Of a stretch of 64,000 nucleotides of DNA, positions 31,465 to 61,702 are shown in pieces (the stretch's first letter is position 1; each line of letters opens with the position of its first letter). Location of the stretch: NCBI GenBank assembly GCA_964516435.1, contig CAZEZP010000078.1, positions 118,707-182,706 of the forward strand, given 5' to 3'. Below the pieces are notes generated by a model. That model was given only the letters and a program-made list of their open reading frames with translations, was not told where the DNA came from and did no database searches. This DNA is from an uncultured Kofleriaceae bacterium. Its GTDB lineage: Bacteria > Myxococcota_A > Polyangia > HGW-17. Both the position numbers and the translations under genes were made by a program.

Positions 31465-31478
31465 CACGAGGAGCCGCC

Positions 31479-32714: not shown

Positions 32715-32730
32715 TTCAAGGAGATAACTC

Positions 32731-33171
32731 ATGGAAAACACCGAAATCACCCTCGAAAATACCGCTTCTCCCGCCCGGAACGAAAAGCCCCGCCGCAAGC
32801 CGTACGGCATGACGCTCATCGAAATCATGGTGGTCATCGTCATCATGGGTATGGTCATGGGTGCCGTGACGGTGGGTGTGATGTCGTACCTCAAGAAGGC
32901 CAAGAAGAAGACCACGCAGACCCAGGTCAACCGCATCGCGGCCACCATCAACGCGGAAGCCGCCGAGCCCGAGAACAAGGGCAAGGACGCCAAGGCCATC
33001 CTGGAGGGGCTGGTTTCCGACGGCTCCTTCAAGAAGAAGGATCTGCTCGATGCCTGGGGCAACGAAATCCGCGTGGAGAAGCAGGATCGCACGTTCTGCG
33101 TGATTTCGGCCGGCGCCGACGAGAGTTTCGGCACGGGCGACGACATCAAGGACGAGGACTGCGGTGAGTGA
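32731..33171 (+). CDS. gspG: major pseudopilin
   Basis: Prepilin motif G|MTLIEIMVVIVIMG with Glu at +5. AAGGAG Shine-Dalgarno before the ATG. The leader peptide is unusually long at 26 aa. Confidence 0.85.
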   Translation: MENTEITLENTASPARNEKPRRKPYGMTLIEIMVVIVIMGMVMGAVTVGVMSYLKKAKKKTTQTQVNRIAATINAEAAEPENKGKDAKAILEGLVSDGSFKKKDLLDAWGNEIRVEKQDRTFCVISAGADESFGTGDDIKDEDCGE

Positions 33172-35485: not shown

Positions 35486-35487
35486 CC

Positions 35488-36747: not shown

Positions 36748-36756
36748 GGTCGGCTC

Positions 36757-41831: not shown

Positions 41832-42118
41832 AAATAGAGACACAAACAAAACAAAACAACATTACACAATTTTTTTCATTTTTTTTGCTCCTTGTTATTG
41901 TTTGAAAATTTCAAAAAAAACCGAACAAATCAACGATAGATAAAATCAAAACTTTGTAAATTAAAATTAATAAAAATGTATAGGTTTGTCAAGCCGGTTT
42001 TTTCATTAAAAATTTTTCAGCGTGAGAAACACGAATACCGGAACTTCTGTCAGATGCAGGAAAAACTTCCGTCTTTCAGCGAAGAAGACCATTTTGCGGT
42101 CTTCAGAAAGGATTGCTC

Positions 42119-44250: not shown

Positions 44251-44346
44251 AATTTTGCTGTAGAGTTCCTGCTTTTTAATAATCTTCCAAAAAAATGGTT
44301 GTCTGATTTGAAAAGTTGTGAAAATACTCAGTCAAAGGGGTTTGTC

Positions 44347-47119: not shown

Positions 47120-48331
47120 ATGAGCGGACGCAAGGATTACCCGGTGTATTCGAGCCAGTTGGAACAAGTGGTGGGCCGATTGCGCGGTCAGATGCAAAAC
47201 CAGCGGCAGGAACTGAAACGGCAGATGGATGCGAAGATTTCCAGCATGCAGAGCCAGATGCAGGGATATGTGAAACAGCGGGTGAATTTTTTGCATCAAA
47301 ACATCCAGCAGGTGGAAGCGAATTTTCAACGTGATCTGCAAAACATGCAAGGCAGATTGCAATCGTCCATAGATGCTGTACGGCGTCACGTGGATGCTTC
47401 CATTGGAAAGTTGCGCCAAGAACTGCGTCTCGAGCGTGAAAACAGGCAGAAAACTGCAGAAGAATGGATGCGGGTACAGGAGTTTCTGCTCACGGAGCTC
47501 GATCGGCTCCAGGCAGGCCGTTTTCGTCCGGTGGAAGCGCAGAAGCATGTGCAGATGCGGGAGTTGATGCAACAGAACATGGCCAGCGGGAATTTCGAAG
47601 CCGTCATTGGTCAGGTGCAGGCCCTCTACGTCGATTCCTTCGCCCTGCGCGCGGAACTGGAAATCGTCAACCAGCAGGCGGCGCAGATGGAAATGGAAAT
47701 CCGGCAGGGCATGGAGTTTCTTGCGCAGGCGCTCCAGAATCCGGTTTTGCGGCAGGAATACGGCACATCCGAAGGCGGGAAGGAACCGGTGGAAATCGAC
47801 CTGCGCTTCTGGGCCGAGGAAGCCTGGAAGGATTTGGAGTCGAGACAGGTCCAGTTGCAGGATGCCGTGCGGGACATGTCCCGGTTCGATATCGATGCGC
47901 TCCGGCAACTTCGCGAGAGCGTCGAAGCCACCTTGCAACTGCATGCGGAAGCGATGGAAGAAGGCTTGCGTCGCCATTTTCTGCACATAGCTAGCATGGA
48001 TCGGCAGGAAAGCATCGTCGAGGCGCTGGCACGCCAGGGCTTCGAGGTCATCGACAACTTCTTCGAGCAGGATGACGAGCGAAAAGCCAATGTACTGCTG
48101 CTGGAAAACGCCTCGGGAGAAAAGATCCTGGTGCGGGTGGTGCCCACCAGGGATGGAGAGAACATCAAGATCAGTTTCAGTTCGCTCAATCCCGTGACTC
48201 ATGGTTCCCGCATGCGGGCACTCAACCAGGCCATCGGCGTTCAGCCGAGGGAAGAACCCGGCTACGAGACACGGCCGGCGCCGCCCGAGGATTTCGATTT
48301 GGAGCGCTATCGCGTGAAACAGAAGGCATGA
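47120..48331 (+). CDS. Gln-rich coiled-coil protein
   Basis: GGAGG Shine-Dalgarno. Long heptad-repeat N-terminal two-thirds (MQNQRQELKRQMDAK...). No catalytic motifs. Confidence 0.55.
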   Translation: MSGRKDYPVYSSQLEQVVGRLRGQMQNQRQELKRQMDAKISSMQSQMQGYVKQRVNFLHQNIQQVEANFQRDLQNMQGRLQSSIDAVRRHVDASIGKLRQELRLERENRQKTAEEWMRVQEFLLTELDRLQAGRFRPVEAQKHVQMRELMQQNMASGNFEAVIGQVQALYVDSFALRAELEIVNQQAAQMEMEIRQGMEFLAQALQNPVLRQEYGTSEGGKEPVEIDLRFWAEEAWKDLESRQVQLQDAVRDMSRFDIDALRQLRESVEATLQLHAEAMEEGLRRHFLHIASMDRQESIVEALARQGFEVIDNFFEQDDERKANVLLLENASGEKILVRVVPTRDGENIKISFSSLNPVTHGSRMRALNQAIGVQPREEPGYETRPAPPEDFDLERYRVKQKA

Positions 48332-48903
48332 TCATGACTTTTTTGCGTGTGGCCGATTTTTGCCACAAAACCACGGCGTTCGGTCCGCAGCCCGCCTGTG
48401 TGCTGTGGCTGCAGGGCTGCACCCGCACCTGCCCGGGCTGCATCGCTCCGATGTGGCAGGATCCGGCCGGCGGTCAGGAGCATTCCGTGGCAAAGGTGCA
48501 TTCCTGGATCGAGCAGTCTGATATGCCCGTGCTGGTGGTCTCGGGGGGAGAGCCCCTGGATCAATGGCAAGGATTGCATGAACTCATGCGCACAACGTCC
48601 CGGGACGCACGAAGCGCCATTTTATATACGGGATACACCTATACGGAATTATTGCAGCATTCAGGCTTTCAATCGCTCATTCCATTTTTTGATTTGCTCA
48701 TTTGCGGCCCATACATCGAGGAATTGAACGATTCGAAAGGCCTTCGGGGTTCTTCCAACCAGGAGTTGATATTCCGGACGGCGCGCTTCGAGGCATGGCG
48801 GGAATGGTTCGTTTCCGGTGCGCGCACGCTGGAAGTGGAAATCCGCTCCGATTTCGTGCGCATGACGGGGATTCCCCCGGCAGGCATGCACCTGAATTTC
48901 TGA
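48328..48903 (+). CDS. NrdG-family radical-SAM activating enzyme homologue (anaerobic RNR activase-like), orphan
   Basis: CxxxCxxC cluster motif LQGCTRTCPGC, SAM-binding SGGEPL, and NrdG-like C-terminal blocks YTGYTYTELL and LRGSSNQELIF. Compare E. coli NrdG WTGYKLDELN and WRGSSNQVV. Confidence 0.75.
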   Translation: MIMTFLRVADFCHKTTAFGPQPACVLWLQGCTRTCPGCIAPMWQDPAGGQEHSVAKVHSWIEQSDMPVLVVSGGEPLDQWQGLHELMRTTSRDARSAILYTGYTYTELLQHSGFQSLIPFFDLLICGPYIEELNDSKGLRGSSNQELIFRTARFEAWREWFVSGARTLEVEIRSDFVRMTGIPPAGMHLNF

Positions 48904-48919
48904 GAGGCGGTGAGATTCG

Positions 48920-51469
48920 ATGGCACAGTCCCAGGAACAGGCATTTGCGCTATTGAGTGATTATTCCCGGCGCATCTTTTTGTTCAACGGAAAAACCAAG
49001 GATTATTTCCTCATGCCCGATGGGCGTTACATGCGCTTTGAATTGGTACTTCATGAATATCTCAAAAAAGAATTGAATTATGATATTGTCGCTTTTGTTG
49101 ATCATAATGGGCTCTTTTTCTGGGATGAAGAATCTGCCAGAGAAGCCATGCAGGCCAAAAGCCGCCGGGAGAAACCGCGCCCGGCATCCATTCGCGGCCT
49201 CATGAAACGCCCGAAAGGAATCACGACGCGTCCGCCAGCGGAAGCGGAAGCGCCAGCCCCCGTGCAGTGGCGCTATGATTTTGCGGGCGATGCGCGCATG
49301 CTGCTGCCGCAGGTGATGGGCATCCTCCAGCGGGACATTTCGGCGGCCGTGGTGGTGCTGGAGCGCAGCCTGCTGTTCAACATCCACCCGCAGGATCCCG
49401 TTTTTTTCAATTTTCGCGGCTTCCTGTGCGATACGATGACGTTTTTCCCGCACGATAACCGCAATCTCATGATATTTGCAGAAAACACCGAAAACATTCA
49501 GGACCTGGCGCGCCAGTTTGGAGAAATGGGTCTGGGAGACCTGTTTTTTACCCGGGAAAACAGCCAGAGCGACGGCAAGGCTGGATTCGCCTACATCGGT
49601 CCGCCGGGAAGAGAGGAATGCCGGCGGCTTTTTTCCTGGTTCCGGGTGGTCAAACAGCGGCCTGTCCACCTGCCGGATGCCGATGCCATGGGGGTGCTGG
49701 CAGCGTCGTGGTCAAAAGAAAAAAATCAAGGTCTGCATGTTCTAGCGGCGAGACTGGAAAAGGTTCGGGAGTTTCGCCTGGATTCAGTTGAGGAAAAATT
49801 GGAGATGAAGGCCGAAAAGAGCGCGCAGGAATTGCTCGACGACCTGGTAGGCATGGAGGAAGTCAAGAAACAGGTTCTGTTGCAACTGGCCACCCTGAAC
49901 CGGGAGGAAGCGAAAAAGGAGGATGCCAAAAAAGAAGAGATGTTCTGGCCGAAAAGGCTGGGCGCACAGAAAACCACCGGAACCCACCCTTACCTGGATC
50001 ATTTCGCATTGCTTGGCAATCCGGGAACCGGCAAGACCACTGTGGCCCGCATCATCGGAAAACTTTTGCAGGAACGGGGGCTTCTGGAAACGGGGCATTT
50101 CATCGGCGTGACACGGGGAGACCTGGTGGGGGAATACGTGGGAAGCACGGCCGTGAAGACCCGCCAGGTGCTGGAGCGGGCCATGGGAGGCGTGCTCTTC
50201 ATCGATGAGGCGTACTCCCTGTACAAAGGTGAGAGCGATACATTCGGGCAGGAGTGCATCGATACGCTCATCGAGGCGATGGAGACGCAGCGCGGGCGTT
50301 TCGTGATGATCCTGGCCGGCTATCCCAACGAGATGCGCAGACTGATCGCCTCCAATCCCGGCTTCAGGAGGCGCGTAAAGGAAATCGTGATTCCGGATTA
50401 TACGGATGCGCAACTGGCTGAAATCATGCGCCGGATGCTGGCGAAGGATGCCTGCGAATCCGACGTTCGGGAAAACCTCGATTTTTATGTGAAGAATCTG
50501 CTGGCCAACCGGACGGTGAGGAACGACTGGGGCAATGCAGGCGAAATCCGCCGGATTTGCGAAGATGCCCGCAAACGATGCGATGCCCGCAGGGGGAAGG
50601 AACTGTGTGCCCAGGATTTCGAGCATCCGGAATATTTCCAGCCGACTTCGGTCAGGACGGAAACGACGCTCGATGACCTGATTGGCATGGCGTCTCTCAA
50701 GCAGCATCTGAAGAAACTGTTCGTGAGTTTCAAGAGCAAGCAGAATCGGGGGCAGAAGGTGGACGTGGGGCATTATTTCTTCATTGGCAATCCGGGAACG
50801 GGGAAAACCACGGTCGCCCAGATTCTGGCCCGGGAACTGTATGCGCGCGGACTTTTGCGGACACCACGCTGTCTGGAGCATACGGCAATGGACTTCATTG
50901 GCCGGTACGTGGGGGAAACCGAAAACAGGACCCGGGAGATTTTCGAAAAGGCTTTGGGCGGCGTGCTGTTCATCGACGAGGCCCACCAGTTGGTGGATGC
51001 CACCCCCAGAGGTGAAACGTATTCCTATGGACAAGCGGTTCTCAAGACACTGGTGCCCTTGATGGAAAATCACCGGCATGAAATTTCGGTCGTCTTTGCA
51101 GGCTATCCGCAGCAGATGAAGCGTTTGCTGGAATACGACCCCGGGATGAAGAGTCGCATTAAAAGTACAATTCGATTTGAAGATTATAGTAATGAAGAAC
51201 TTCTTCAAATATTTTTAATACAATTTAAAAAAGAATATCCAGACATGTCTTTCCCCCTGGAAATGCAGGCGCCGCTGGCGGATTTCTTTGGAAAAGTGCG
51301 TGCCCTGGAAAGGGAGAAGTTCGGCAATGCACGCATGGTGCGCAATTTCGTGGGAAAACTGGTGGACACTTTGGAGTCGCGCTGGAACGAAGAGTCCGAA
51401 AGTGAAAAAAACATCTCAATGGCAGATCTGGAAAACGCCATGCAGGAATACATGCACCAGAATATGTGA
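48920..51469 (+). CDS. tandem AAA+ ATPase of the CbbX/SpoVK family
   Basis: Two modules, each with GNPGTGKTTVA[RQ]I Walker A, ...GGVLFIDEA[YH] Walker B and sensor regions. The first module is near-identical to the CbbX consensus. 849 aa. Confidence 0.8.
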   Translation: MAQSQEQAFALLSDYSRRIFLFNGKTKDYFLMPDGRYMRFELVLHEYLKKELNYDIVAFVDHNGLFFWDEESAREAMQAKSRREKPRPASIRGLMKRPKGITTRPPAEAEAPAPVQWRYDFAGDARMLLPQVMGILQRDISAAVVVLERSLLFNIHPQDPVFFNFRGFLCDTMTFFPHDNRNLMIFAENTENIQDLARQFGEMGLGDLFFTRENSQSDGKAGFAYIGPPGREECRRLFSWFRVVKQRPVHLPDADAMGVLAASWSKEKNQGLHVLAARLEKVREFRLDSVEEKLEMKAEKSAQELLDDLVGMEEVKKQVLLQLATLNREEAKKEDAKKEEMFWPKRLGAQKTTGTHPYLDHFALLGNPGTGKTTVARIIGKLLQERGLLETGHFIGVTRGDLVGEYVGSTAVKTRQVLERAMGGVLFIDEAYSLYKGESDTFGQECIDTLIEAMETQRGRFVMILAGYPNEMRRLIASNPGFRRRVKEIVIPDYTDAQLAEIMRRMLAKDACESDVRENLDFYVKNLLANRTVRNDWGNAGEIRRICEDARKRCDARRGKELCAQDFEHPEYFQPTSVRTETTLDDLIGMASLKQHLKKLFVSFKSKQNRGQKVDVGHYFFIGNPGTGKTTVAQILARELYARGLLRTPRCLEHTAMDFIGRYVGETENRTREIFEKALGGVLFIDEAHQLVDATPRGETYSYGQAVLKTLVPLMENHRHEISVVFAGYPQQMKRLLEYDPGMKSRIKSTIRFEDYSNEELLQIFLIQFKKEYPDMSFPLEMQAPLADFFGKVRALEREKFGNARMVRNFVGKLVDTLESRWNEESESEKNISMADLENAMQEYMHQNM

Positions 51470-51478
51470 AGGTGAATC

Positions 51479-52072
51479 ATGTCGGATCCGAAACAGGCCT
51501 TTTTTCAGGAAATACGGAAAAGAATCCGCAACCATCCGGAAGGTGGCGTGCTGGAGGTCATGGATGCCATCCTGAAACTTTTCAACATGCTTCCGCCGAG
51601 TCATTCCTGGGGGCAATCCGATGCCTGGATGGAAAAGTTCCAGAAATTGATCGTAGCCATCGATTTTTGCGTGCATTCGGCGGGAATGGAAACGGAAAAG
51701 CAGAAAATCGCGCAGTTGCAGGAAAAGATTGAAAAAAACCAGAATGAGAAAAAAGCACTTGAAGATACGATTCAAAATTTGGAAAATACGCTGGGATTGG
51801 AAAACAAGACGCTGGCCGATTTGCGCGCACTCCTGGAGCAATTGCAGAGCATCGAATTCTTTTTGTCAGCAAACGAGTCCGTGCGCGTCTTGAGAGATCG
51901 GCTCAAGGACGACCAGCAGTTTTGCGTTTCGCTTCCGCAATGGCGCAAGGAGTATGAGAAAGACATGGAAAAAGCCCTGCAGCATCTCACGGAAGCCGAA
52001 AAGATCGTGCAAGTCATCAGCGAGGAATTCGAGCGGCATACCCGGGAAATCCAGGAACGCAACGGAAGGTAA
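51479..52072 (+). CDS. hypothetical coiled-coil protein
   Basis: AAGGTGA Shine-Dalgarno. 197 aa with a central KQKIAQLQEKIEKNQNEKKALEDTIQNLEN heptad region. Confidence 0.5.
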   Translation: MSDPKQAFFQEIRKRIRNHPEGGVLEVMDAILKLFNMLPPSHSWGQSDAWMEKFQKLIVAIDFCVHSAGMETEKQKIAQLQEKIEKNQNEKKALEDTIQNLENTLGLENKTLADLRALLEQLQSIEFFLSANESVRVLRDRLKDDQQFCVSLPQWRKEYEKDMEKALQHLTEAEKIVQVISEEFERHTREIQERNGR

Positions 52073-52081
52073 GGAGAAAGA

Positions 52082-53854
52082 ATGCTATTCGAGATGAAAG
52101 AACTCAGTGCTGAAGAATTTGAAGAGCGGGTCGCCTTCTGGAGTGAGCGGCTGAATAGCAATCGGGTGAAATGTACGCCCGGCCATATGCGCTATTACAT
52201 CGCCGCGCCCCGGCAATCGGAACTGGTGCTGGTCCAGAATGTGGCGGGTTTTTCCCAATGTTTTCTGGAAAAAGCAGATTTTTCACCCCTTTCCAGGATT
52301 CTTCCCACGGGAAAGGAACTCATTCGCCGGCTACTCGATGGGGATTCCGAAGAACGCCGGATTCTGGAAACGCTGGCGGATGCGCTGGATCAACTCGGTT
52401 CATACAACCGGCATGTTTTCTGGCTGGATCCCGATCTGATCCTGTGGGATGGCAGCCGCATCCTGTTTCATCCTTTCGCGTGGCCCCAGATGTTCGTTTC
52501 CGACGAAACCGTCGTCAATCCGGAAATCCGGAACCAGTATGGCTACAAGATGGCCGTAAAAAATCCACGGATTGCCGCAGGCCAGATCGACAGCGACCTG
52601 GAGCGGGTCGCCTTCCTGTATTTTTTGCTGGAGTTGCTTTTCCCCGAGGTTCCATTCCGGAAAATGGACCGGACCATGATCCCCAAATTCCTCAAGTATT
52701 TTTCGAGGGCAGGTGTGTTTATGAAAAAATTTTTGTCGCGCTGGTTTGGAAAATCGCAAAATGAAAAGATTGCGGAAAAACCGCGGGAGATGCTTCAGGG
52801 CATCATCGGCGCGGCCAAGAACAATCCGCTGGCGCCACTTCCCTATCAGGAAGCGCGATATGAATGCGAGTATGATGTGCGCCGCGGGAGACACAAGAAG
52901 GGAACGCACAGCGAAGACGAATATGAAGTGATTGAATCCGGAAAGCACGAGAAGAGCCGGTATTTCATCTTCGTGAGCGATGGCGTGAGCACGGCGGATT
53001 TCGGGGATGGGGACGGCATGGTCCGTTTCCTGCGCGATCAGGTGCAAAATCAGAAGGAACAGATTGCATCCTTCCTGGATTCATTGCCCACGGATGATGC
53101 AAGGAAGTTTGCGGAAGAAAGCCGCTCTTTTCTGCTTGATTTGTGCCGCAAATTGAATGAGGCCGCTATTGAAAAACTCAATGAGCAACTGAAAAAGGAA
53201 AGCAAATCGGCCGAAGACATCCAGCATCCCATGAGCGCCACGCTCGTGCTGGGCGTGGTGTGCGGCAACTGGGTGCATTTCGTTCACATGGGCGACAGCG
53301 AGGTGATTTTCGTGCGGGGTGCAGATGCGTACATTCTGAATACGCCGCACAACGGGCTGCGCGACCGGCTTCTCGAAGAAGCGGCCCATGCGCAGGAAAT
53401 CCGCTCCCGCGTCGATGGGGACGAAGAACTGACGCTCGTCATTCCGGAATTTTCCATCGAGCAGGGGCGATTCGTCTCCAGTCTGGATGCCAATGCCCTG
53501 GAAAGTGTTTCCCTGTATCTGCAGAAGGGGGATTTGCTGCTGTTCTGCACGGATGGCCTGCTCAGTTGTCTGGGACACAATCCCGCCCAGCGGGAGGATG
53601 CCCTTCCGGAGTTGCTTCGCATCCTGCGGGAAACCGATGCGCTTCCTTTCTATGACCGGATCCAGAAGTTGCTCGATGAAGCCAAGAAAACGGGGGAAGA
53701 CGACGTGGCCGTGGTGGGACTGAAGAACATGGGACTGCCCGTTGCAACTTTGGCATCGGGGCAGGAAAAGGAAAGGGAGAAGCCAGGTTCCAGGGAAAAG
53801 GAATCCAGTATTTCTATTACAATCAGGGATTCAAAAAAAGAACGTAAATTATAA
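52082..53854 (+). CDS. PP2C-family Ser/Thr phosphatase with about 270-aa N-terminal extension
   Basis: PPM motifs FVSDGVSTADFGDGDG, HMGDSEVIF, FCTDGLLS and DDVAVVGL in the C-terminal half. TAAGGAGA Shine-Dalgarno. Confidence 0.75.
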   Translation: MLFEMKELSAEEFEERVAFWSERLNSNRVKCTPGHMRYYIAAPRQSELVLVQNVAGFSQCFLEKADFSPLSRILPTGKELIRRLLDGDSEERRILETLADALDQLGSYNRHVFWLDPDLILWDGSRILFHPFAWPQMFVSDETVVNPEIRNQYGYKMAVKNPRIAAGQIDSDLERVAFLYFLLELLFPEVPFRKMDRTMIPKFLKYFSRAGVFMKKFLSRWFGKSQNEKIAEKPREMLQGIIGAAKNNPLAPLPYQEARYECEYDVRRGRHKKGTHSEDEYEVIESGKHEKSRYFIFVSDGVSTADFGDGDGMVRFLRDQVQNQKEQIASFLDSLPTDDARKFAEESRSFLLDLCRKLNEAAIEKLNEQLKKESKSAEDIQHPMSATLVLGVVCGNWVHFVHMGDSEVIFVRGADAYILNTPHNGLRDRLLEEAAHAQEIRSRVDGDEELTLVIPEFSIEQGRFVSSLDANALESVSLYLQKGDLLLFCTDGLLSCLGHNPAQREDALPELLRILRETDALPFYDRIQKLLDEAKKTGEDDVAVVGLKNMGLPVATLASGQEKEREKPGSREKESSISITIRDSKKERKL

Positions 53855-53877
53855 TAAATATAAAGGAGATTTGAAGC

Positions 53878-55182
53878 ATGTCGGAAGGAAAAGTCATTCT
53901 CACCATGTATTCCAACCCGGATTACCTTCCGGGCAACCAGGTAGACCAGGTCATCGAGGGGGTGCTGGTCGTGGAGCCGCCGACGTCCAGCCAGAACGTC
54001 CAGACGGGCACGGATCTCGTGCTGCTGCTCGACTCCAGCGGTTCCATGAATGAAGCCTACTATGACGTGGGCATGTCCAAGCGCCAGAAGGTGGTGGAAG
54101 CCGTCCGTTCGCTTCTGCCGCTCATGTCGGATCTGGATACGCTGACATTCATCAGTTTCAATACAGGCGCTACTTTGTTGCTGGATCATGAGCGCAGGTC
54201 GGCATCCACCCGCATCGAAACCTGCCTGCAGGAATACATGGGCCAGGATGGCGGCACCAATTTCGAAGCCGCCATGCAGGTAGCCAGCACGGTGTGCCAG
54301 AACCGGGTCAACCCCGTTACCCGGCTCATTTTTTTGACGGATGGGCACGCATATGGCGGCAACCCCCAGCGGGCCGTTGAAATTGCCGGGCGTATGGCCA
54401 GTCAGGGAATCATGATCGATTCCATGGGCATTGGCGCCGAATTCAATTTCGATTACATGCGTCAGTTTTCCGCCCTCTGTGCTGGCATCACGGAAAACCT
54501 CGCCCGGGAGGCCAATCCGCAGGTGATATTCCGCAACATCCTGCGTTCCGGCCAGCGCACGATAGCTGCCAACCTCCAGTTGCAGGTGTTTTTCGGGAAT
54601 CACGTGCGCGACGTGGAAATCTACCAGTGCGCGCCCGAAAAGCGCTCGCTGTCCGCCTCTTCCACCACGAGTGCCCATGGGACGTTCTACCAGATGCTCA
54701 TCGGGGATTTGTCCATGGGAAATCCCAAGCAGTTCGTCATGCGCTGCCATGCGGACCTGCCGGATGCCTCCTATGTCAAACTGGCGGATATCCTGGTTAC
54801 CTACCGGGATCCCGCGACCGGCAACCCGGGAAAGATGGAAATCGCCTGGACGATCAACCTGTCGAAAGACGACAAAAACGTGCGCTATGACAGTTTCGTG
54901 CGCGACTGCCTGCGGGAAGTGGAACTGCTCATTGGTCTGGAACAGGCCTTGCGCCTCTACCAGAATGGCAACATCGCCGAGTGCCTGAAGAAAATGGACG
55001 GTCTGATCAAGGATGCCCGGAGCCTGGGCGACGTGGAGCAGGAGCGCATGCTGAGAAAGGCTTTTGAAAAGGTTCAGCGCAACGAGAATCTTTCCCAGGA
55101 GGAACTCAACCGGATGCTACATCGCTCCTCGCGATCGAGCCGGGTGCGCACGACACAGCCGAAGAATACATCCACGTTGTAA
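53878..55182 (+). CDS. von Willebrand factor type A (vWA) domain protein
   Basis: MIDAS motif DLVLLLDSSGSM, plus GGTNF and IFLTDGHAYGG. AAAGGAG Shine-Dalgarno. Confidence 0.75.
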   Translation: MSEGKVILTMYSNPDYLPGNQVDQVIEGVLVVEPPTSSQNVQTGTDLVLLLDSSGSMNEAYYDVGMSKRQKVVEAVRSLLPLMSDLDTLTFISFNTGATLLLDHERRSASTRIETCLQEYMGQDGGTNFEAAMQVASTVCQNRVNPVTRLIFLTDGHAYGGNPQRAVEIAGRMASQGIMIDSMGIGAEFNFDYMRQFSALCAGITENLAREANPQVIFRNILRSGQRTIAANLQLQVFFGNHVRDVEIYQCAPEKRSLSASSTTSAHGTFYQMLIGDLSMGNPKQFVMRCHADLPDASYVKLADILVTYRDPATGNPGKMEIAWTINLSKDDKNVRYDSFVRDCLREVELLIGLEQALRLYQNGNIAECLKKMDGLIKDARSLGDVEQERMLRKAFEKVQRNENLSQEELNRMLHRSSRSSRVRTTQPKNTSTL

Positions 55183-55194
55183 TCGAGGTGTTGC

Positions 55195-56250
55195 ATGACG
55201 CAGAAAGCCTTTCTTTGTGCGGGCACTTCATCGAACAACTATTTATTCAACCCATTTTATCCAGAAACGGACGTAGAATGGACCATTCCGGAGAACTTTC
55301 CGGAAGAAAACGTTCAACTTCACAAGGATGAGAACGGACATCTGCACATCCAGTGCAAGGAAGCCGATGATGTCTATGTTTTCATCTGCAACCGGGGGGA
55401 CATGAAACAGGAAATCGAGAGCCGGTTTGTACGGTTGCCGGAAGTCCTGGAGATTCCCGTGAATGGTTCCTGGCAGTTCCCGCTTTTGGACGGTGCCGTT
55501 TCTCTGCAATGCGAGATGCTGCCGGAAATCGGTCGTCTGGAGCGTTCGCAGGCCGGAAATGAATGGAAACTGATGCCTTTGCAAGAAGGATATGCCACAT
55601 GCACCTGCGTATGGGGTGAAGAAAAAAAATATAAAGTGCAGTCCCAGTTCCGGCTGCGTATCATCCAGGTATCCACGTACTTCGCTCCGTCCGAATCGAG
55701 CCGTCCCGGAATTTTGGCTTCCCCGGACAATGCGAGGGATTCCCTTTCGGCGGCCGCAGATTCTCGGCAAACGGGGCAGGAAGCATCCGGAAAAACCGGG
55801 ATACAGGCGCAGGATTCCGATTCTCCGGCGGATTCCCTGGCATCCCCCAATTCTTTATCGGGAAGTTGGACGGGAAGCATCGATGCCGTTCCAGAGTTGC
55901 GCGGCCCCGTTTTTCTGGTCGTGCGGAAAAAAAATGGAACGGAAGAAATTTCGCGCCATTCCGTGGGATTGGGAAAGAGTCTCGTCGTGGGTAGGGCTTC
56001 CGGATCGGCGCCGCTGGCCGTGGATGTGGATCTCGCTCCCCATCTTTCCAGGGAGAACCGGGACCTGTGTTCCCGCAACCAGTTGCGCGTATTCATTTCC
56101 AACAACCGGGTATACGTGAAAAACATTGGAAGCGTGGATGTCGAACTGGATGACGGAAAACTGCTGCCGGCCGGACAGGGGATGTTTCTGGCCGTTGGCC
56201 GACAGTTGGAAATCGCAGGAGAGATTGCGCTGACGCTGCAGGAAGGATGA
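55195..56250 (+). CDS. FHA-domain protein
   Basis: C-terminal FHA fold (GKSLVVGRASGS...SRNQLRVFISNNRVYVKNIGSVDVELDDGKL). N-terminal 200 aa unknown, with a Ser-rich linker. Confidence 0.7.
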   Translation: MTQKAFLCAGTSSNNYLFNPFYPETDVEWTIPENFPEENVQLHKDENGHLHIQCKEADDVYVFICNRGDMKQEIESRFVRLPEVLEIPVNGSWQFPLLDGAVSLQCEMLPEIGRLERSQAGNEWKLMPLQEGYATCTCVWGEEKKYKVQSQFRLRIIQVSTYFAPSESSRPGILASPDNARDSLSAAADSRQTGQEASGKTGIQAQDSDSPADSLASPNSLSGSWTGSIDAVPELRGPVFLVVRKKNGTEEISRHSVGLGKSLVVGRASGSAPLAVDVDLAPHLSRENRDLCSRNQLRVFISNNRVYVKNIGSVDVELDDGKLLPAGQGMFLAVGRQLEIAGEIALTLQEG

Positions 56251-56251
56251 C

Positions 56252-58582
56252 ATGCTGCCCACCATCAGGACCTTCGAGAACAAGGGCGTACAGTACCAGA
56301 TTCCAGAAACCCTGCAGCAGGGCCGCTACCGAGTCACCGGGGTGCTGGCCCGCGGGGGAATGGGAATCATCTACAAGGCGCTGGATACGCGTCTGCACAA
56401 CAAGATGGTGCTGATCAAGAGCCTCATCTACAAACCATCCATTTTCCAGTACAAAAGCGACAAGGCGCGTGATGAGGAAATCCTCGCCCGGCGGGAGCAG
56501 ATGCGTTCCGAGAAGGTCGTATTGCAATACTTGTGGGAACGCGGTATTGGTGGGGTTCCAATCGTCCTGGATGCATTCGAGGATTTCAATCCCATGCTCC
56601 ACGGTCCGCACCGGGACGAATCCACGGGCGATCTGTACACGTGCAGTGAGTTTTCAACTTCGGATCCCTATCTGGTGCTCAATTATTTCGACGGGGTTCC
56701 CGTTGGCGACTGGGTGTTGGCAGACCCGACGCAACGGCAGAATTTTGCCAAAAGGATTCTGGTCAGCATCACCAAGATTCTGGAGGTGTTGCATCAACCC
56801 TACCGGATGACACTGACGGATGGCCGGGAAATCGTCCTGCAATGCATCTATGGCGACATGAAGCCGGGAAACATCATTCACACCACGGACAAGTCCATCG
56901 TGCTGATCGATCTGGGCAGCGTCGTCAAGAAAATCAATGGCAATATCGAAGGCATCATCACCACCACGCCGGGCTACTGCGCGCCCGAGGTCAACGAGCA
57001 GCTGCAGAATTCCATCCTTGCGGCGGATGTCACTCCTGCGGTGGATGTCTACTCGCTGGCCGCCACGCTCTACGAAATCCTGGCCCGGCAGCCCCCGGCA
57101 GTTTCCATGGGCCACAACCAGTTCGATTTTTCCTTGATTCGCAGGGATTTTCCGGCATGGGAAAAATTTTTACTCACAGCGCTCGATGAACTTCCACAGA
57201 ACCGGTTTCAGAACATGGCGCAGATGCGTGCGGCTTACTATGCCATGGTGGAAGGAAAAACACAGGCAAGTCCACCCGTTGATCGCGGCGAGATTTCCCG
57301 CCGGCTCATGCCGCCGCAGCGGCGGGTTTTCTTTGCTTTTCCGGGCTGGGAAACCCGCCATGAACATTGGGAGCAGAGAATCTTCCTGATGGCCACCCTG
57401 CAGAAGTTGGCCGGCAATTTCTATCTCAATGCCCAAGGGCTGTATGTAGACGCTTCCCGGTTGACTCCTTTGATACCGTTGACTTCCGTGGAAAGAACGA
57501 TGTATTTTCCTTCCTTGAAGTTGCAGTTGCAACAGGTATCGAAGATTTTATGCAAAAACAAGGTTTATTTGCCTGAATTGCTGGAAGAGTATTTTTCAGA
57601 TGAATATTTTTATATAATTTATAAAAGCAAGCAGGGGAATTCCATCAACAAGGATAACCCGGATAAAAATTACATATACAAGAGAATTTCCAGGATCATC
57701 AATACATTCATCGACATGCATGCCAGCGGCATTCTCCTGCCCGAGATTTCCTGGGATGAAATCCGGTTCGACATCACGGATGCGCCGTTGTTCACCCATG
57801 TTTCCCGCCTTACCCATTTGGAGCATCCGCAGCAAGCCTTTCCGCAGTTCCTGCTGCGGATGCTCCAGCCGCGGCATTCGGCGCCGGAAATCGTGCAACT
57901 CAATGAATTCAACGAAAAAACCTACAGCTACCTGGTGGGCCGGCTGCTGCTGGAATTTTTGGCCGATGCCCGCCGGATTTCGTTGGATGACATATATCGG
58001 GGACAGGATTTTCTGGAAAAAGATGCGCTCGAGTCCTGGGCAGGACATCTTACGAACGATCCCGTGCTGCAGAAGTTTCTGTTGCATTCCCTGGCCATTC
58101 CATTGAATTTCCGGGCGTCCCTGTGGGATCTTCGCAGCCTGCTGGCCGACGGAGATATAAACACCCATCAGAGAGCGGGACACGCCGCCGCCGTGCAGGG
58201 GAATCTGATTACGATCCTCTCCAATTTCCATTTGGATTATCAACGGATCTATGCACGGGCTCTCGAGGTTTTTGGAAAGAGGATTCTGTATCAATCATTT
58301 GCCGTCCGGAGAAATGGCGGTACGACCAAATTACCCTCCTTCGTGCAAGTCGTTGTGCATGCCCAGCCGGAAGTCGCCCTGCAGCAAATTCTCCAGCAGC
58401 ATGCCCAGCCGTATCTGATCCTGTGCATCAATTCGCACCACGATGCATGTTTTCAGGTCATCGATCGTCATGCCCGGAATTTTAAGGGGATATTCATCCT
58501 GACAGACAATTTCAATTATTCCTTCCGGCATGCCAACGTGCATGTTCAGACGCTGCTCGAATTTCAGAAGAGGGGAACATGA
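56252..58582 (+). CDS. Ser/Thr protein kinase (non-RD; catalytic motif YGDMKPGN) with about 450-aa C-terminal extension
   Basis: G-loop ARGGMGIIYKA, beta3 Lys VLIK, catalytic loop IYGDMKPGNIIH, DLG (in place of DFG), and TTPGYCAPE. Confidence 0.8.
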   Translation: MLPTIRTFENKGVQYQIPETLQQGRYRVTGVLARGGMGIIYKALDTRLHNKMVLIKSLIYKPSIFQYKSDKARDEEILARREQMRSEKVVLQYLWERGIGGVPIVLDAFEDFNPMLHGPHRDESTGDLYTCSEFSTSDPYLVLNYFDGVPVGDWVLADPTQRQNFAKRILVSITKILEVLHQPYRMTLTDGREIVLQCIYGDMKPGNIIHTTDKSIVLIDLGSVVKKINGNIEGIITTTPGYCAPEVNEQLQNSILAADVTPAVDVYSLAATLYEILARQPPAVSMGHNQFDFSLIRRDFPAWEKFLLTALDELPQNRFQNMAQMRAAYYAMVEGKTQASPPVDRGEISRRLMPPQRRVFFAFPGWETRHEHWEQRIFLMATLQKLAGNFYLNAQGLYVDASRLTPLIPLTSVERTMYFPSLKLQLQQVSKILCKNKVYLPELLEEYFSDEYFYIIYKSKQGNSINKDNPDKNYIYKRISRIINTFIDMHASGILLPEISWDEIRFDITDAPLFTHVSRLTHLEHPQQAFPQFLLRMLQPRHSAPEIVQLNEFNEKTYSYLVGRLLLEFLADARRISLDDIYRGQDFLEKDALESWAGHLTNDPVLQKFLLHSLAIPLNFRASLWDLRSLLADGDINTHQRAGHAAAVQGNLITILSNFHLDYQRIYARALEVFGKRILYQSFAVRRNGGTTKLPSFVQVVVHAQPEVALQQILQQHAQPYLILCINSHHDACFQVIDRHARNFKGIFILTDNFNYSFRHANVHVQTLLEFQKRGT

Positions 58583-60024
58583 ACTCGCCGGTTTATGAGG
58601 AAACCCGGAAAAAGGCGCTCGAGGCGCTCCGGAACAAGGACTACGAGTCGTCATTTCTGCTGCACCTCCAGCAACTCGAATGGTTGCGGCGGGAACCGGT
58701 GGACGTGGAGAATCTCCAGGAACGCCAGCGGGTGCTCAACAACCTGCTGGTGAGCCTGCATGGCCGCATCCAGCGCGGGCAGGCGGAAAATCCACGGGAA
58801 TCCTGCCGGTTGTTCCAGGATTTTCTGAAGGAATACCTGGACGTATCCGGAAACATTCCATTCGAACAGCGCCGCCGGGGAGCCGATAATGTCATTTCGG
58901 ACCTCTACCGCCATGCCCTGCGCGTGACGCTGCTGCAGGTAACGGAAGACGATGGCATTTCCCTGCAGGAACAGGAAAGGCAACTCAAGTGGCATGTGCG
59001 GGATATTTACGACCGGTTCTTCCAGGTATTTTGCCGTGATGGCGCTTTCCCATATGAAATTTTGCTCGATCCATCTATGGATATGTTGTATTTTGAACGT
59101 CGAAATATTTTGCGTAAAGGTCATTTGCAGCAAAATTATTATAATACAATCTGGATGGCAGAGGTGTTCCTGCAATTTTTCTCGGGAGAGCATATGGCAC
59201 GGGTGCGCTCCGAGATCCTGCTGCTGTGCAGTGATGTGAGCCAGTTTCTGCCGCCGCCCCCTGAACATTCCCGGATGCGGTTTGCCGCCGAAATGCAGGC
59301 GATTTCGTGGCTGGACAAAAGTCTGGCGGAATATCCGGAAAACCGGGTGGCACGCGAACGCCGCCAGCAACTGGTTTCGTTCCTCACGGCGGCCGAGCAG
59401 ATCAACCGTTTCCGCCATGATGTCGTTTCCAAGATCGAATCCATCCGGGGAATCCTGGGGAAACTGCAGGAAAGGAATCCCGATGGGGAAAGCCGGCAGC
59501 AACTGCAGGCCGCCATGGTCCACGTGCGCACCATTCTGGGTTCGTTCCGCCTGACCATGCGCGAGCGACCCTCTTTGCGGGGCGTAGCGTCCATGGAATC
59601 GTTCCTGGAACGCTTCGCGGATGCAGATGTCACGGCCAAACTGCAGGGAACTCCGCGGCCGGTGGTGACGGACGAGGAATATCTGGCTCTCGTGGTGCAG
59701 AACCTGGTGCAAAATGCCCGGGAGGCCTATGCCCGGAACCGGATTTCCGGCGGGCAGGTGCATGTCGTGTTCGATTACGACCGTCTGGCGCTGGAAGTTC
59801 GGGATTGGGCCGGCGGCATTCCGGAGGAATTGCGTGCCAATGACAAATTGTTTGAGCCCTATGCCTCTTCCAAGGGCATCCAGCAGAATGCTGGTCTTGG
59901 TCTGGCCAATGTGCGGGAAGCCTGCCGGCTGCTGGAAGCTTCGATACGGTACGAAATCCTGAAACAGGATGGCCATACAGGTACGGTTTTCATTATCACA
60001 CTGAAAGAACCAGAAAGGGATTGA
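58579..60024 (+). CDS. GHKL/histidine-kinase-like ATPase (cytoplasmic, degenerate H-box)
   Basis: C-terminal HATPase_c N-box LVQNLVQNAREA, G1 VRDWAGGIP and G2 GLGLA. FRHDVVSKIESIRG is a possible divergent phosphoacceptor box. ATGA overlap with the kinase gene. Confidence 0.7.
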   Translation: MNSPVYEETRKKALEALRNKDYESSFLLHLQQLEWLRREPVDVENLQERQRVLNNLLVSLHGRIQRGQAENPRESCRLFQDFLKEYLDVSGNIPFEQRRRGADNVISDLYRHALRVTLLQVTEDDGISLQEQERQLKWHVRDIYDRFFQVFCRDGAFPYEILLDPSMDMLYFERRNILRKGHLQQNYYNTIWMAEVFLQFFSGEHMARVRSEILLLCSDVSQFLPPPPEHSRMRFAAEMQAISWLDKSLAEYPENRVARERRQQLVSFLTAAEQINRFRHDVVSKIESIRGILGKLQERNPDGESRQQLQAAMVHVRTILGSFRLTMRERPSLRGVASMESFLERFADADVTAKLQGTPRPVVTDEEYLALVVQNLVQNAREAYARNRISGGQVHVVFDYDRLALEVRDWAGGIPEELRANDKLFEPYASSKGIQQNAGLGLANVREACRLLEASIRYEILKQDGHTGTVFIITLKEPERD

Positions 60025-60027
60025 AAC

Positions 60028-61020
60028 ATGCGTTCACTCAAAATCTTGATCATGGACGATGAAATCTTTGCCAATGACCAGAATCCGGCTATCCAGGCCG
60101 CCCAGCGCCTGCTTGAGGAAGGGCATCTTGTGCAGGTGACCGACCGGATGTCGGAAGTGCTGGGGGGCCTGCAGAAGAAGTTTTTCGATGTCTATGTGCT
60201 GGATATCGACATGTCCCTGGTGCAGGACATCGACAATGCCAGCGGTTCCAATGTCGGCCGGGCGCTTCGGAAATTCAGTTCGCTGACCAACATCGTCGTC
60301 TTCAGTGCGCGCGGCGAGGTGCCCGACTGGTTCACGGCCGCCAACTACCATTTCCAGGGATACGTATTCAAGGGCGATGACGGTGTGGAGAATCTGGCCC
60401 GCCATATCCGGGAACTGGCCGAGCGTCCGATTCCGGTGCCCCGCTTCGATCTCGGAGAACTCGAGCCGCCTTCGCGGGTTCTCGTGTACCGCCATCCCAG
60501 CCTGGGAGAACGCTTTGCGCCCGAGCGCATCCGTCCCTGGATCCAAGCCGTTTATCCCGATGCGGAAATCCATGTTTGCACGCAGTTGCAGGAAGTCGTG
60601 GATTTCCAGCAGGAATGCGGCTGCATTCTGCTCTTGCACACCATGTTCCGGGACCAGGAGAGCACCTGGAGCGATTTGGAGCGGATTTTTGGGCGCCAGC
60701 CCAGACCGCATGTCATCGTGGCCGTGGATAGTTCCGGGGATACGCCCCAGACGCATCGCGGCACCATTCTGAATCTGGTAAACCGGCATCCGTTCCGCCT
60801 TCTGGACCTTGCGGATCCCCGTTTCGAATCCAGTCTGCAGCAGGCCATCGAACGCTCCCGTTTCTGGTATGGCCGCCAGGAAGTATTCGAATATCCCGAG
60901 GAATTCCGGGATCGCATCGGCATGCCACTGACGGCAGAAGACGTGGCCTTGATCCGCGAGCAGGATGAGCGTTTCGATGAACTTTCAATGCAGGACGAGG
61001 GGGATGATCATGAAGCATGA
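60028..61020 (+). CDS. response-regulator receiver (REC) domain protein with uncharacterised C-terminal domain
   Basis: REC motifs ILIMDDE, phospho-Asp YVLDIDM, VVFSA, YVFKG. The C-terminal 200 aa are of unknown function. Confidence 0.7.
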   Translation: MRSLKILIMDDEIFANDQNPAIQAAQRLLEEGHLVQVTDRMSEVLGGLQKKFFDVYVLDIDMSLVQDIDNASGSNVGRALRKFSSLTNIVVFSARGEVPDWFTAANYHFQGYVFKGDDGVENLARHIRELAERPIPVPRFDLGELEPPSRVLVYRHPSLGERFAPERIRPWIQAVYPDAEIHVCTQLQEVVDFQQECGCILLLHTMFRDQESTWSDLERIFGRQPRPHVIVAVDSSGDTPQTHRGTILNLVNRHPFRLLDLADPRFESSLQQAIERSRFWYGRQEVFEYPEEFRDRIGMPLTAEDVALIREQDERFDELSMQDEGDDHEA

Positions 61021-61702
61021 AATTTTCCTTCTGGATACGAACGTCCTGTATGAAATCATTACCCTCTACAGTCCAGAGCCTTCGTCTCTGGCCAAGAAAA
61101 TCGACGGATTTTTGAAAGGCAGAAAACTCGTCTATATTCCGGATATCGTGTGGACGGAATTTACGGCTTCCATATTTCAAAAGAAAATTGATTATAGCGA
61201 TTACAACTCGTGGCATCAAAGAGTTCTATCTTCATATCTTCATGTGTATCAATATCTGCTTGAACATAAAGTAAGAGATTACAAAACCTCCGGAATCGCA
61301 TCCGTCGTGAACATCGATTTCATCGGCTTGGCCCGCGATTTCGCATTCATCCGGCCGGAAGATGATTTCATCCAGTCTCTGGTTGGTGAAACCAGCCAGA
61401 AACTGCAGGCTGCACTGGCGCAGGAGAATCCCGACCCGGCGACCCTGGAATTCATTGAGCGGCAGCGCCACAACCTGGCATCCGGAAAACTCATGGATGG
61501 CTGCGATACCATGATTCTGGCCAGCGCCATCGTGTTTGCCATCCAGCGTGCCGATTCCCGCGTGATTCTTCTGTCCAACGACCGCTGGATGGGCAGGGTC
61601 GCCAACCATTTATTGCAAAATCTGAACAAATATGGCCTGGAAGACCTGAAAAACCGGAGTTTTTCCTTGACAGTGGAAAACCCGAAAAACTTTCGCTTTT
61701 GA
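61010..61702 (+). CDS. PIN-domain nuclease (VapC-like fold, extended)
   Basis: N-terminal IFLLDTNVLYEI and the downstream acidic residues (DGCDTMILASAI) of the PIN fold. GAGGGGG Shine-Dalgarno. The start overlaps the REC gene stop. Confidence 0.7.
   Translation: MKHEIFLLDTNVLYEIITLYSPEPSSLAKKIDGFLKGRKLVYIPDIVWTEFTASIFQKKIDYSDYNSWHQRVLSSYLHVYQYLLEHKVRDYKTSGIASVVNIDFIGLARDFAFIRPEDDFIQSLVGETSQKLQAALAQENPDPATLEFIERQRHNLASGKLMDGCDTMILASAIVFAIQRADSRVILLSNDRWMGRVANHLLQNLNKYGLEDLKNRSFSLTVENPKNFRF

Follow-up and report, generated by a model that had tools for sequence, protein, structure and literature searches.

In Sulfolobus, the kinase ArnC phosphorylates threonines in the C-terminal region of ArnB, the forkhead-associated (FHA) domain of ArnA binds there and tightens the complex, and a phosphatase reverses the switch (PMC6509490, PMC12852372). 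TerY-P triads, which consist of a von Willebrand factor A (vWA) protein, a PP2C phosphatase and a kinase, have been proposed as phospho-switches that act in defence and reside in defence islands, and in CoCoNuT loci they associate with SpoVK-like tandem AAA+ ATPases and CARF nucleases (PMC11090510; the triad goes back to Anantharaman 2012 and Gao 2020). The same paper, citing Gao 2020, describes TerY-P-like modules as defending on their own. A report on Deinococcus radiodurans likewise describes an operon, DRA0331-DRA0334, that encodes vWA, Ser/Thr protein kinase, FHA and PP2C proteins and is linked to the DNA-damage response (bioRxiv 10.64898/2026.01.23.701218). Among the listed accessory genes of type III CRISPR systems, the family C3a189 is the sole kinase, and CARF-PIN proteins also exist (Shah et al. 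2018, PMC6546367). We here analysed a 64,000-nt stretch of DNA from an uncultured Kofleriaceae bacterium (contig CAZEZP010000078.1, positions 118,707 to 182,706 of the forward strand; hereafter the window), in which an earlier reading of the letters (the original prediction) had placed a PP2C, vWA, FHA and Ser/Thr-kinase module at positions 52082-58582. The four open reading frames (ORFs) were confirmed at these positions, and they form the core of a conserved 11-gene operon, hereafter the cassette, at window positions 47120-61702. On the evidence below, the cassette is probably a type III CRISPR-associated phospho-signalling or defence module, with a likely PIN-family RNase as its output. We found no description of it in the full-text literature searched, a coverage that leaves many subscription papers outside.

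Loci were gathered by reading the DNA around kinase relatives, relatives from a metagenome scan, and vWA and PP2C homologues. As a result, the same gene set, usually in the same order, was recovered from 16 distinct divergent loci, all of them metagenomic, and the arrangement is therefore beyond chance. Between pairs of loci, the vWA proteins share 26-66% identity, the kinases 23-56% and the PP2C proteins 17-53%, and we read the resulting matrix as about four clades. The window copy is composed as follows.

Gene A, 47120..48331, + strand: 403 aa, opening gene of the cassette, for a coiled-coil protein whose C-terminal domain is conserved
Gene B, 48328..48903, + strand: 191 aa, small NrdG-like radical-SAM enzyme of the glycyl-radical activase type
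Gene C, 48920..51469, + strand: 849 aa, tandem AAA+ ATPase of the SpoVK/CbbX/EccA type
Gene D, 51479..52072, + strand: 197 aa, coiled-coil protein
Gene E, 52082..53854, + strand: 590 aa, N-terminal domain of ~260 aa followed by a PP2C phosphatase
Gene F, 53878..55182, + strand: 434 aa, ArnB-like vWA protein
Gene G, 55195..56250, + strand: 351 aa, N-terminal domain, linker and divergent FHA domain
Gene H, 56252..58582, + strand: 776 aa, non-RD Ser/Thr kinase with a pseudokinase and a predicted alpha/beta domain
Gene I, 58579..60024, + strand: 481 aa, soluble histidine kinase
Gene J, 60028..61020, + strand: 330 aa, response regulator
Gene K, 60965..61702 from the first ATG (true start probably ~61004-61010), + strand: 245 aa, PIN-like nuclease

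The spacing of these genes ranges from a 17-nt overlap to a 23-nt gap, and most are preceded by a sequence resembling a ribosome-binding site. The start of gene B overlaps the stop of gene A by 4 nt, as does the start of gene I with the stop of the kinase gene. Within the four-gene module, which lies on the + strand with ATG starts throughout and encodes proteins of 590, 434, 351 and 776 aa, the PP2C-vWA, vWA-FHA and FHA-kinase gaps are 23, 12 and 1 nt, so that the tight packing predicted earlier stands and only its upper figure of 24 nt is corrected to 23. The catalytic residues are kept in every cassette enzyme, as judged from the orthologue alignments. The GC content of the cassette, 47-58%, is lower than the 60-65% measured over the initial 16 kb of the window, which fits a horizontal acquisition. 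The upstream GTPase-DUF697 pair, the upstream TPR protein and a downstream 305-aa ORF fall outside the conserved unit. Scans of the window for promoters, terminators and Rfam families gave nothing exceeding chance, and a comparison with PHROGs was uninformative apart from one match of gene B.

The main clue to function came from the surroundings of the relatives, since type III CRISPR-Cas components were found in or beside the cassette at 10 of the 11 loci with readable flanks.

L001, a Desulfospira metagenome-assembled genome (MAG): one CRISPR array on either side of the cassette, both in the same orientation; genes for Lon_C and Csa3_N (CARF) proteins downstream
L002: Cas_APE2256 protein upstream; Cas6-like, RAMP, Cmr2, Cmr3, RAMP, Cmr5 and RAMP genes from 24 nt after the PIN gene
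L173: Cas6-like, RAMP and Cas10/Cmr2 genes from 2 nt after the PIN gene
L167: RAMP, Csx19, RAMP and Cas6 upstream; Csm6 downstream
L176: Csx1-like gene, PolyA_pol/HD gene and Csm6 upstream
L088: Cas6-RT-Cas1 fusion (517-3165, 882 aa) and CARF-adenosine deaminase (3496-5604) upstream
L171: Cas2 and adenosine deaminase (1180-3240) upstream, with the deaminase domain alone detected in the latter
L174: CARF-adenosine deaminase (11722-13905) downstream
L091: Cas1 downstream
L169: CRISPR array downstream

In L001, the array at 248-1023 has 11 and that at 15888-16865 has 14 copies of a 36-nt repeat; the repeats of the two arrays are nearly identical in sequence and end in ATTGAGAC, and the downstream Lon_C protein is 696 aa long. 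An adenosine-deaminase gene directly adjoins the cassette, with gaps of ~60-190 nt, in three divergent loci (L088, L171 and L174), and this neighbour may be a clue to the input signal, for example through the formation of inosine triphosphate (ITP) or the depletion of ATP. The linkage to CRISPR is present in all four clades in varied arrangements, indicating that the association has been kept through rearrangement and does not descend from one inherited accident. Co-localisation with type III systems in divergent genomes, as expected of a type III accessory module, is thus what we observed.

Several points weigh against this assignment. In the 64 kb of the window, of which 2.3 kb lie downstream of the cassette, neither a cas gene nor a CRISPR array is present, so that at this distance at least the cassette is able to exist without CRISPR. 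We also searched for a sensor by a pooled Pfam scan of 84 unassigned regions from all members at E<=0.05, in which TPR and Pkinase were the only families reported, while CARF, SAVED and the known cyclic-oligoadenylate sensors were absent. The N-terminal regions of the PP2C and AAA+ proteins, the C-terminal region of the vWA protein and protein A likewise gave no convincing PDB sequence match. Judged by sequence, the cassette thus shows no CARF, SAVED or equivalent sensor and no identified route from Cas10, although a sensor of a new fold could be present. Since defence genes cluster in islands, neighbourhood alone is no proof of functional dependence. The PADLOC defence models gave no system-level match to the window, only generic kinase matches (PD-T4-6, mad6 and C3a189) and AAA matches (IetA, mad8 and TRIP13). 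In addition, the PIN assignment draws on Pfam scores below threshold together with conserved acidic residues, the order of the signalling steps proposed below is purely our inference, and all of the relatives are uncultured.

Some of these observations would suit a stand-alone, TerY-P-like abortive-infection or defence system, which would have its own sensing and share islands with type III loci without depending on Cas10. The isolation of the window copy from CRISPR-Cas and the lack of a detected CARF or SAVED domain agree with such a system; its domain set would be complete from input to output (kinases, receiver and PIN), and the combination of vWA, PP2C and kinase is that of TerY-P, for which independent defence is described (PMC11090510). 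However, the flanks at 10 of the 11 loci carry specifically type III or CARF genes rather than a mix of defence systems, and the cas genes are often co-oriented and only 2-72 nt from the cassette, which in L001 sits between two arrays. The cassette kinase furthermore has no zinc ribbon or OB fold of the TerY-P kind, and neither the PP2C nor the vWA protein has a PADLOC match at E<=0.01. We therefore regard a stand-alone system as rather unlikely.

The close packing with cas genes raises a second alternative, namely that the cassette regulates CRISPR-Cas itself, with phosphorylation and AAA+ remodelling controlling the type III complex or the CARF effectors as an on/off safeguard. The cassette is probably co-transcribed with cmr genes, given the 2-nt and 24-nt gaps, and it adjoins the toxic CARF effectors Csm6, Csx1 and CARF-deaminase; it is also rich in regulators (PP2C, FHA, two types of kinase and an AAA+ unfoldase), and the ArnA/ArnB pair is itself a regulatory switch. 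Against this role, the conserved PIN nuclease that the cassette itself encodes, with its acidic residues intact, points to an effector; moreover, the window copy is maintained with no cas genes close by, and a DNA-binding output domain was not found in its response regulator. Such a safeguard function appears to us distinctly unlikely, and the association with type III immunity as a signalling or defence module is preferred.

As such a module, the cassette resembles the known type III ancillary effectors (Csm6/Csx1, Can1/2, Cad1, CalpL, CorA and NucC, among others) in its placement in the locus and in its putative nuclease output. In contrast to these, which consist of one protein or a few proteins organised around a ligand sensor of the CARF, SAVED or a comparable type, it comprises 11 genes without a detectable CARF or SAVED domain. 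The cassette kinase does match the C3a189 model, although weakly (E = 3.5e-6) and through the generic catalytic core.

The family is rare and patchy. Among 5.8 billion proteins, only five full-length relatives of the kinase were found, including that of the window, and among 185,579 species-representative genomes the kinase family occurs in just two, an uncultured Desulfospira MAG and a Cloacimonadota MAG. No family members were found in PLSDB plasmids, INPHARED phages or IMG/VR. The variant cassettes differ in content and order: L085 is without the histidine kinase gene; L088 has the order PP2C-FHA-vWA-kinase and two tandem PIN paralogues, and genes A-D are missing from its contig, which suggests that they form a separable sub-module; in L091, the FHA gene has been relocated to the end; and in L169, genes A and B have been relocated together to the 3' side of the PIN gene. 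In the closest relative of the window copy, L084 (59-65% identity), the vWA gene at 27-1334 is split into ORFs of 111 and 303 aa, for which a frameshift, gene decay to a pseudogene or faulty assembly could account.

This distribution bears on whether the cassette could be a housekeeping operon for stress or developmental signalling, comparable to ArnA/ArnB or Deinococcus DRA0331-0334, with an incidental association with CRISPR. The closest characterised vWA/FHA relatives do regulate motility and the DNA-damage response, and the window copy lies in an ordinary chromosomal region ~26 kb from dnaN/recF. A family present in 2 of 185,579 genomes and scattered over several phyla, with a GC content below that of its host, is nevertheless hard to reconcile with housekeeping, and the CRISPR context at 10 of 11 loci together with a PIN nuclease are the marks of a mobile defence module. 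We consider the housekeeping account very improbable.

We then investigated the individual proteins, starting with the phosphatase of gene E. PP2C_2 matched aa 272-519 above the gathering score (E = 5e-10) and SpoIIE matched with E = 6e-9, placing the phosphatase domain at aa ~265-560. The metal-binding motifs of the PP2C family, (N/S)ED, ADGVS, GDS, TDGL and D(N/D)(I/V)(T/A), are kept in 12 orthologues. The N-terminal extension, predicted at 270 aa, indeed spans ~260-270 aa and has no match in Pfam, NCBIfam or PDB. A pseudokinase was considered for this extension, and its in-register likeness to the kinase C-lobe was non-significant (hhalign P 0.05-0.08).

The vWA protein of gene F was matched by VWA_2 at aa 47-157 (E = 1e-12) and by vWA-TerF-like (E = 8e-7), and its metal-ion-dependent adhesion site (MIDAS), DxSxS...T...D, is intact in the window protein and invariant in 12 orthologues. 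The best PDB match of the family profile was ArnB of Sulfolobus acidocaldarius (8S05_A, E = 3.6e-13; the entry is identified as ArnB by PMC12852372), a match that spans profile positions 17-243 and thus covers the N-terminal strands and the vWA domain only; in ArnB itself, the vWA domain is set into a beta-sandwich, and a helical bundle with the phospho-sites follows C-terminally. The vWA domain is followed by a conserved region of ~190 aa and then by a Ser/Thr-rich C-terminal tail, LTQxDLN..[ST]S[ST]R[SA][ST], in the 12 orthologues; PDB sequence searches with the C-terminal region gave no convincing match.

The FHA assignment of gene G was drawn from its family, since the window protein itself had no Pfam match even at E<=10. 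FHA (PF00498) matched three of the eight orthologues, with a best E of 4e-4, and the FHA-like Yop-YscD_cpl matched two of them. The top PDB matches of the family profile in the C-terminal region were also FHA domains (3gqs, E = 0.12; 6hc0/6hc1, ~0.7, with a range to 0.75), and the family keeps the motifs GR/GK, SRN(H/Q) and NIGS, although the window protein has Gln at the conserved FHA His. On balance, these orthologue matches, profile matches and motifs suggest that the C-terminus is a divergent FHA domain. The original prediction of an FHA protein with a 200-aa N-terminal domain therefore probably holds for the FHA call, in a divergent form, while the N-terminal part consists of a domain of ~165 aa and a low-complexity Ser/Pro/Ala linker of ~70 aa that precedes the FHA domain at aa ~240-351 (nt 55912-56247). 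The N-terminal ~165 aa gave no significant match in Pfam, PDB or the pooled scan. Resolving the extensions at the domain level, as had been suggested earlier, thus succeeded for the kinase, as described below, and left the N-terminal regions of the PP2C and FHA proteins without a match.

Like the Arn switch, these three proteins and the kinase combine a Hanks kinase and a Ser/Thr phosphatase with a free-standing vWA protein and a protein that ends in an FHA domain. The Ser/Thr-rich tail of the cassette vWA protein lies where ArnB bears the phosphothreonines bound by ArnA, and the FHA protein and ArnA share the order of N-terminal domain, linker and C-terminal FHA domain. The cassette is bacterial, however, and its phosphatase is of the PP2C type, whereas that of the Arn system is PP2A and the system regulates the archaellum and the DNA-damage response. 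Unlike ArnA, the FHA protein has no zinc finger, as no Cys is conserved, and the kinase has a pseudokinase and a predicted alpha/beta domain where the Arn kinases (ArnC/ArnD) have OB and TPR domains. The cassette further adds radical-SAM, AAA+, histidine kinase, response regulator and PIN genes, and it sits in CRISPR loci. The Deinococcus operon DRA0331-DRA0334 encodes the same four domain families; it is set apart by another gene order, by a PP2C with a kinase-interacting FHA domain, and by the lack of the other seven cassette genes and of a link to CRISPR.

The kinase of gene H was matched by Pkinase above the gathering score (E = 6e-14) within aa ~20-340. Its catalytic motifs read IYGDMKPGN and IDLGS, that is, YGD in place of HRD and DLG in place of DFG, exactly as had been noticed earlier, when they were called atypical. 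Across 11 orthologues, the motifs follow the patterns Y-[C/G/T]-D-[L/M]-K-x-x-N and D-[M/F/L]-G, and the Arg before the catalytic Asp is absent in all 11 (YGD in the window, YCD or YTD in the relatives), so that none of them is an RD kinase; the exact pair of YGD and DLG is restricted to the window and its closest relative L084. The family also conserves a GGMG G-loop, the VLIK lysine, the alphaC glutamate and TPGYxAPE in the 11 orthologues. Because the motif pattern and the other catalytic elements are conserved, YGD and DLG are family traits rather than signs of decay, and gene H apparently encodes an active, family-wide non-RD kinase with a complete catalytic apparatus. Non-RD kinases are typical of innate-immune receptor kinases. 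A conserved insert of ~60 aa is located in the N-lobe between the beta3 lysine and the hinge, although its predicted structure is of low confidence. Within it, aa 113-122 (nt 56588-56620) include N113, P114, L116, G118, P119, H120 and D122, which are invariant in the five closest members, and G118, P119, H120 and D122 are still invariant across eight family members.

The catalytic domain is followed by ~436 aa, close to the 450-aa extension that had been described as uncharacterised. By sequence comparison, this extension resolves into a pseudokinase (aa ~405-640) and a small, predicted alpha/beta domain (aa ~650-770). Thus, hhalign aligned aa 345-640 with the protein's own kinase domain (P = 4e-4), and the APE motif and the arginine of subdomain XI fell in register. 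Both L091 and L169 have a kinase gene that is split exactly at the kinase/pseudokinase boundary; the second half from L091 matched the Pkinase C-lobe (E = 7e-4), and in the pooled scan two isolated C-terminal halves of the kinase matched Pkinase. Since the G-loop, HRD and DFG were not seen by eye in this second fold, we assign it as a pseudokinase. The last ~130 aa are predicted to form alternating beta and alpha elements in a Rossmann- or flavodoxin-like arrangement, and fold searches with the C-terminal region returned match lists dominated by the pseudokinase. A relationship of the alpha/beta domain to REC was considered and dropped, as its hhalign P of 0.008-0.013 was non-significant after 45 comparisons. 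The tandem recalls JH1/JH2 of the JAK family at the level of fold only (8-17% identity), but with the order reversed, the cassette kinase coming first, and with the extra C-terminal alpha/beta domain.

The same C-terminus separates the cassette from TerY-P. Both have vWA, PP2C and kinase genes in one operon, and the cassette vWA protein matches vWA-TerF-like as noted above. The TerY-P kinase, however, ends in a zinc ribbon or an OB fold, and the triad comes without an FHA partner and without genes for a histidine kinase, a response regulator, a PIN protein or a radical-SAM enzyme. An assignment of the cassette as TerY-P was accordingly rejected on the kinase C-terminus and on the presence of the FHA partner and seven further genes.

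The original prediction had likened the module to the PpkA/PppA/Fha regulators of the type VI secretion system (T6SS), and a T6SS-type threonine-phosphorylation pathway, or another regulator of secretion or the envelope, was considered in this light. The domain types are indeed the same (Hanks kinase, PP2C, FHA and vWA), the PpkA-PppA-Fha1 pathway being likewise a reversible post-translational switch of a Hanks kinase, a PP2C and an FHA adaptor, and the window contains a type II secretion cluster 9-20 kb upstream of the cassette. Yet among the 11 relatives whose flanks could be read, none has T6SS or envelope genes there, the type II secretion genes are not conserved beside the cassette, and none of the 11 window cassette proteins has a transmembrane-like segment (maximum 19-residue hydropathy <1.5). 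The cassette thus shows neither linkage to T6SS core genes nor a membrane-spanning PpkA with a periplasmic domain; its proteins are soluble, the FHA domain lies at the C-terminal end of its protein, and the vWA domain belongs to an ArnB-like cytoplasmic protein of its own instead of forming a periplasmic domain of the kinase. With such flanks and no transmembrane-like segments, the T6SS comparison is unsupported and a role of this kind is extremely improbable. The extensions did not turn out to be common sensor domains beside a T6SS or envelope locus, and that of the kinase is neither PASTA nor TPR. The genomic context given earlier, AAA+ ATPases and a nuclease in place of a T6SS, was right, except that the ATPases are one protein with two AAA+ modules (48920-51469) and the nuclease is PIN-like.

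Downstream of the kinase, gene I encodes a protein that begins with ~270 aa of helical, TPR-like character and continues with DHp and CA domains (HATPase_c, E = 2e-14). Its H-box RFxHD (H280), N-box (N375/N379), G1 box DxAGGI and G2 box GLGL are invariant in 11 orthologues. In the pooled scan of unassigned regions, which were taken from eight proteins, TPR_2 was matched by six members, and we infer that these matches belong to the N-terminal region of the histidine kinase. Gene J was matched by Response_reg (E = 6.5e-9) and by REC against a PDB profile (E = 1e-6), while its second domain appeared CheY-like at E ~0.4 only. D10-D11-E12, D59, S93 and K115 are invariant in 11 orthologues, the protein ends in an acidic tail, and no DNA-binding output domain was found. 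Together, genes I and J carry the residues of both a histidine kinase and a response regulator, and hence constitute a two-component pair. Gene K matched PIN_12, PIN_4 and PIN with E values of 2e-4 to 9e-4, all below the gathering scores. In 11 orthologues, D24 (in DTN) and E65 are invariant and D178, D181 and D206 nearly so (at least 90%), and this PIN-like nuclease is the probable effector of the cassette. The first ATG of gene K overlaps gene J by 56 nt, but the orthologue alignment favours a start at ~61004 or 61010; the resulting overlap of 11-17 nt suggests that genes J and K are translationally coupled.

The first four genes of the cassette combine a radical-SAM enzyme and an AAA+ ATPase with two coiled-coil proteins. 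Gene B was matched by Fer4_12 (E = 3e-22), by NrdG TIGR02491 below the cut-off (E = 3e-19) and by PHROG 626 (E = 3e-22), and the activase features CX3CX2C (C31, C35 and C38), SGGEP and NrdG-like RGSxNQ are invariant in seven orthologues. Gene C was matched by AAA over two stretches (E = 2.5e-36), by AAA_lid_6 (E = 5e-9), and by SpoVK (E = 2e-113), CbbX (E = 3e-98) and EccA (E = 5e-95), the last three each below the equivalog cut-off. In seven orthologues, both modules carry conserved Walker A (GNPGTGKT) and Walker B (IDEA) motifs, as expected of an AAA+ protein, whereas the CoCoNuT-linked ATPases keep them in the second module only. CbbX-type AAA+ ATPases pull on the C-terminal tail of their substrate. 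The N-terminal ~330 aa of gene C had no PDB or Pfam match. In this region (nt 48920-49909), the stretches RIFLxxGKTxD and AVVVxE resemble remnants of Walker A and B, and it may be a degenerate third P-loop module.

Protein A, the product of gene A, consists of an N-terminal coiled coil and a conserved C-terminal domain of ~120 aa with the tail motif G[YFT]E-x3-AP-x3-F[DN][LV]xx[YV]. Its matches were limited to coiled-coil or apolipoprotein-like proteins, without a convincing PDB sequence match. Orthologues were present in L001, L002, L091, L167, L169, L171 and L176, and the C-terminal half had just 53 relatives at E<=1e-3 among 1.84 billion representative proteins. From its sequence, the tail resembles a docking or modified peptide. 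A glycyl-radical protein was also considered; the G[YFT]E motif lies ~20 residues from the C-terminus without a preceding RV, there is no RVxG signature, and the Gly is missing in some distant relatives, so this was rejected and is kept only as an idea of low probability. Gene D gave matches limited to tropomyosin- or SMC-like coiled coils, and a gene of 193-209 aa occupies the same position in L001, L002, L167, L169, L171, L173, L174 and L176.

For a cassette serving type III immunity, we propose a course of events of which each single step is less likely than the overall assignment. An infection-linked cue, read by one of the unassigned domains of the cassette, would activate the non-RD kinase; the cue could be a product of Cas10 recognised through a new fold, or could arise from the action of adjoining CARF effectors, for instance an ITP-forming CARF-deaminase. 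The kinase would phosphorylate the conserved Ser/Thr tail of the vWA protein, on which the FHA protein would dock in the manner of ArnA on ArnB, thereby assembling the complex. The histidine kinase, which is soluble and TPR-bearing, might then pass the signal on to the receiver protein, and the latter would free or activate the translationally coupled PIN nuclease and lead to dormancy or abortive infection, while the PP2C would reset the switch. In a separate arm, the radical-SAM enzyme would modify protein A and the tandem AAA+ ATPase would remodel it.

A more far-reaching form of this proposal is that the cassette represents an unrecognised branch of type III immunity, in which phosphorylation and a His-Asp relay take the place of a CARF/SAVED receptor, a Cas10 product or metabolic damage caused by adjoining CARF effectors, such as ITP from the CARF-deaminase, is sensed through a new fold, and a PIN RNase output is accompanied by a second, oxygen-sensitive output, in which the radical-SAM enzyme places a radical or another modification on protein A for remodelling by the CbbX-like AAA+ ATPase. 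We put this forward tentatively, as a possibility that is doubtful in its full extent. Two known kinds of system meet in the cassette, the vWA/FHA/kinase/phosphatase switch and the accessory module of type III loci, and there is a substantial chance that the cassette is a categorically new, phosphorylation-based form of CRISPR signalling.

Should the link to type III systems prove functional, the CRISPR alarm would in some bacteria run through a cascade that has several layers and can be reset, whereas the known type III accessory effectors are essentially one-step devices in which a CARF, SAVED or similar receptor is joined directly to a toxin domain. The cassette brings together eukaryote-like Ser/Thr signalling, a two-component relay, an AAA+ remodeller and a glycyl-radical-type activase. 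It would therefore offer a tractable case for the timing and reversal of abortive responses, for the inputs of non-CARF accessory genes, and for TerY-P-like and ArnA/ArnB-like switches in defence. Even if autonomous, it would be a new, large defence-island system, known so far from uncultured organisms, among them Desulfospira and Cloacimonadota MAGs and sediment samples.

Finally, some features of the window lie outside the cassette. Two tandem DUF697 GTPase genes and a gene for an 834-aa TPR protein are located directly upstream on the same strand (42113-46803, +); the group recurs in the Logan contig L166, from the same organism, and is missing beside every other copy. Actinobacterial GTPase-centred conflict systems with kinase, PP2C and vWA components have been described (PMC7159879), and by analogy a link between the upstream GTPases and the cassette is possible. 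Further upstream, at 21615-38505, a gene for a 1145-aa TPR protein is followed by GspD secretin, GspE, GspF, GspK-like and GspL/PilM-like genes, a cluster that is not found near the relatives of the cassette. The recF-like (SMC_N) and dnaN genes (19121-21297, - strand; region 16000-22000) lie in a GC trough of 45-48%, against 60-65% on either side, and the window may be close to the chromosomal replication origin.

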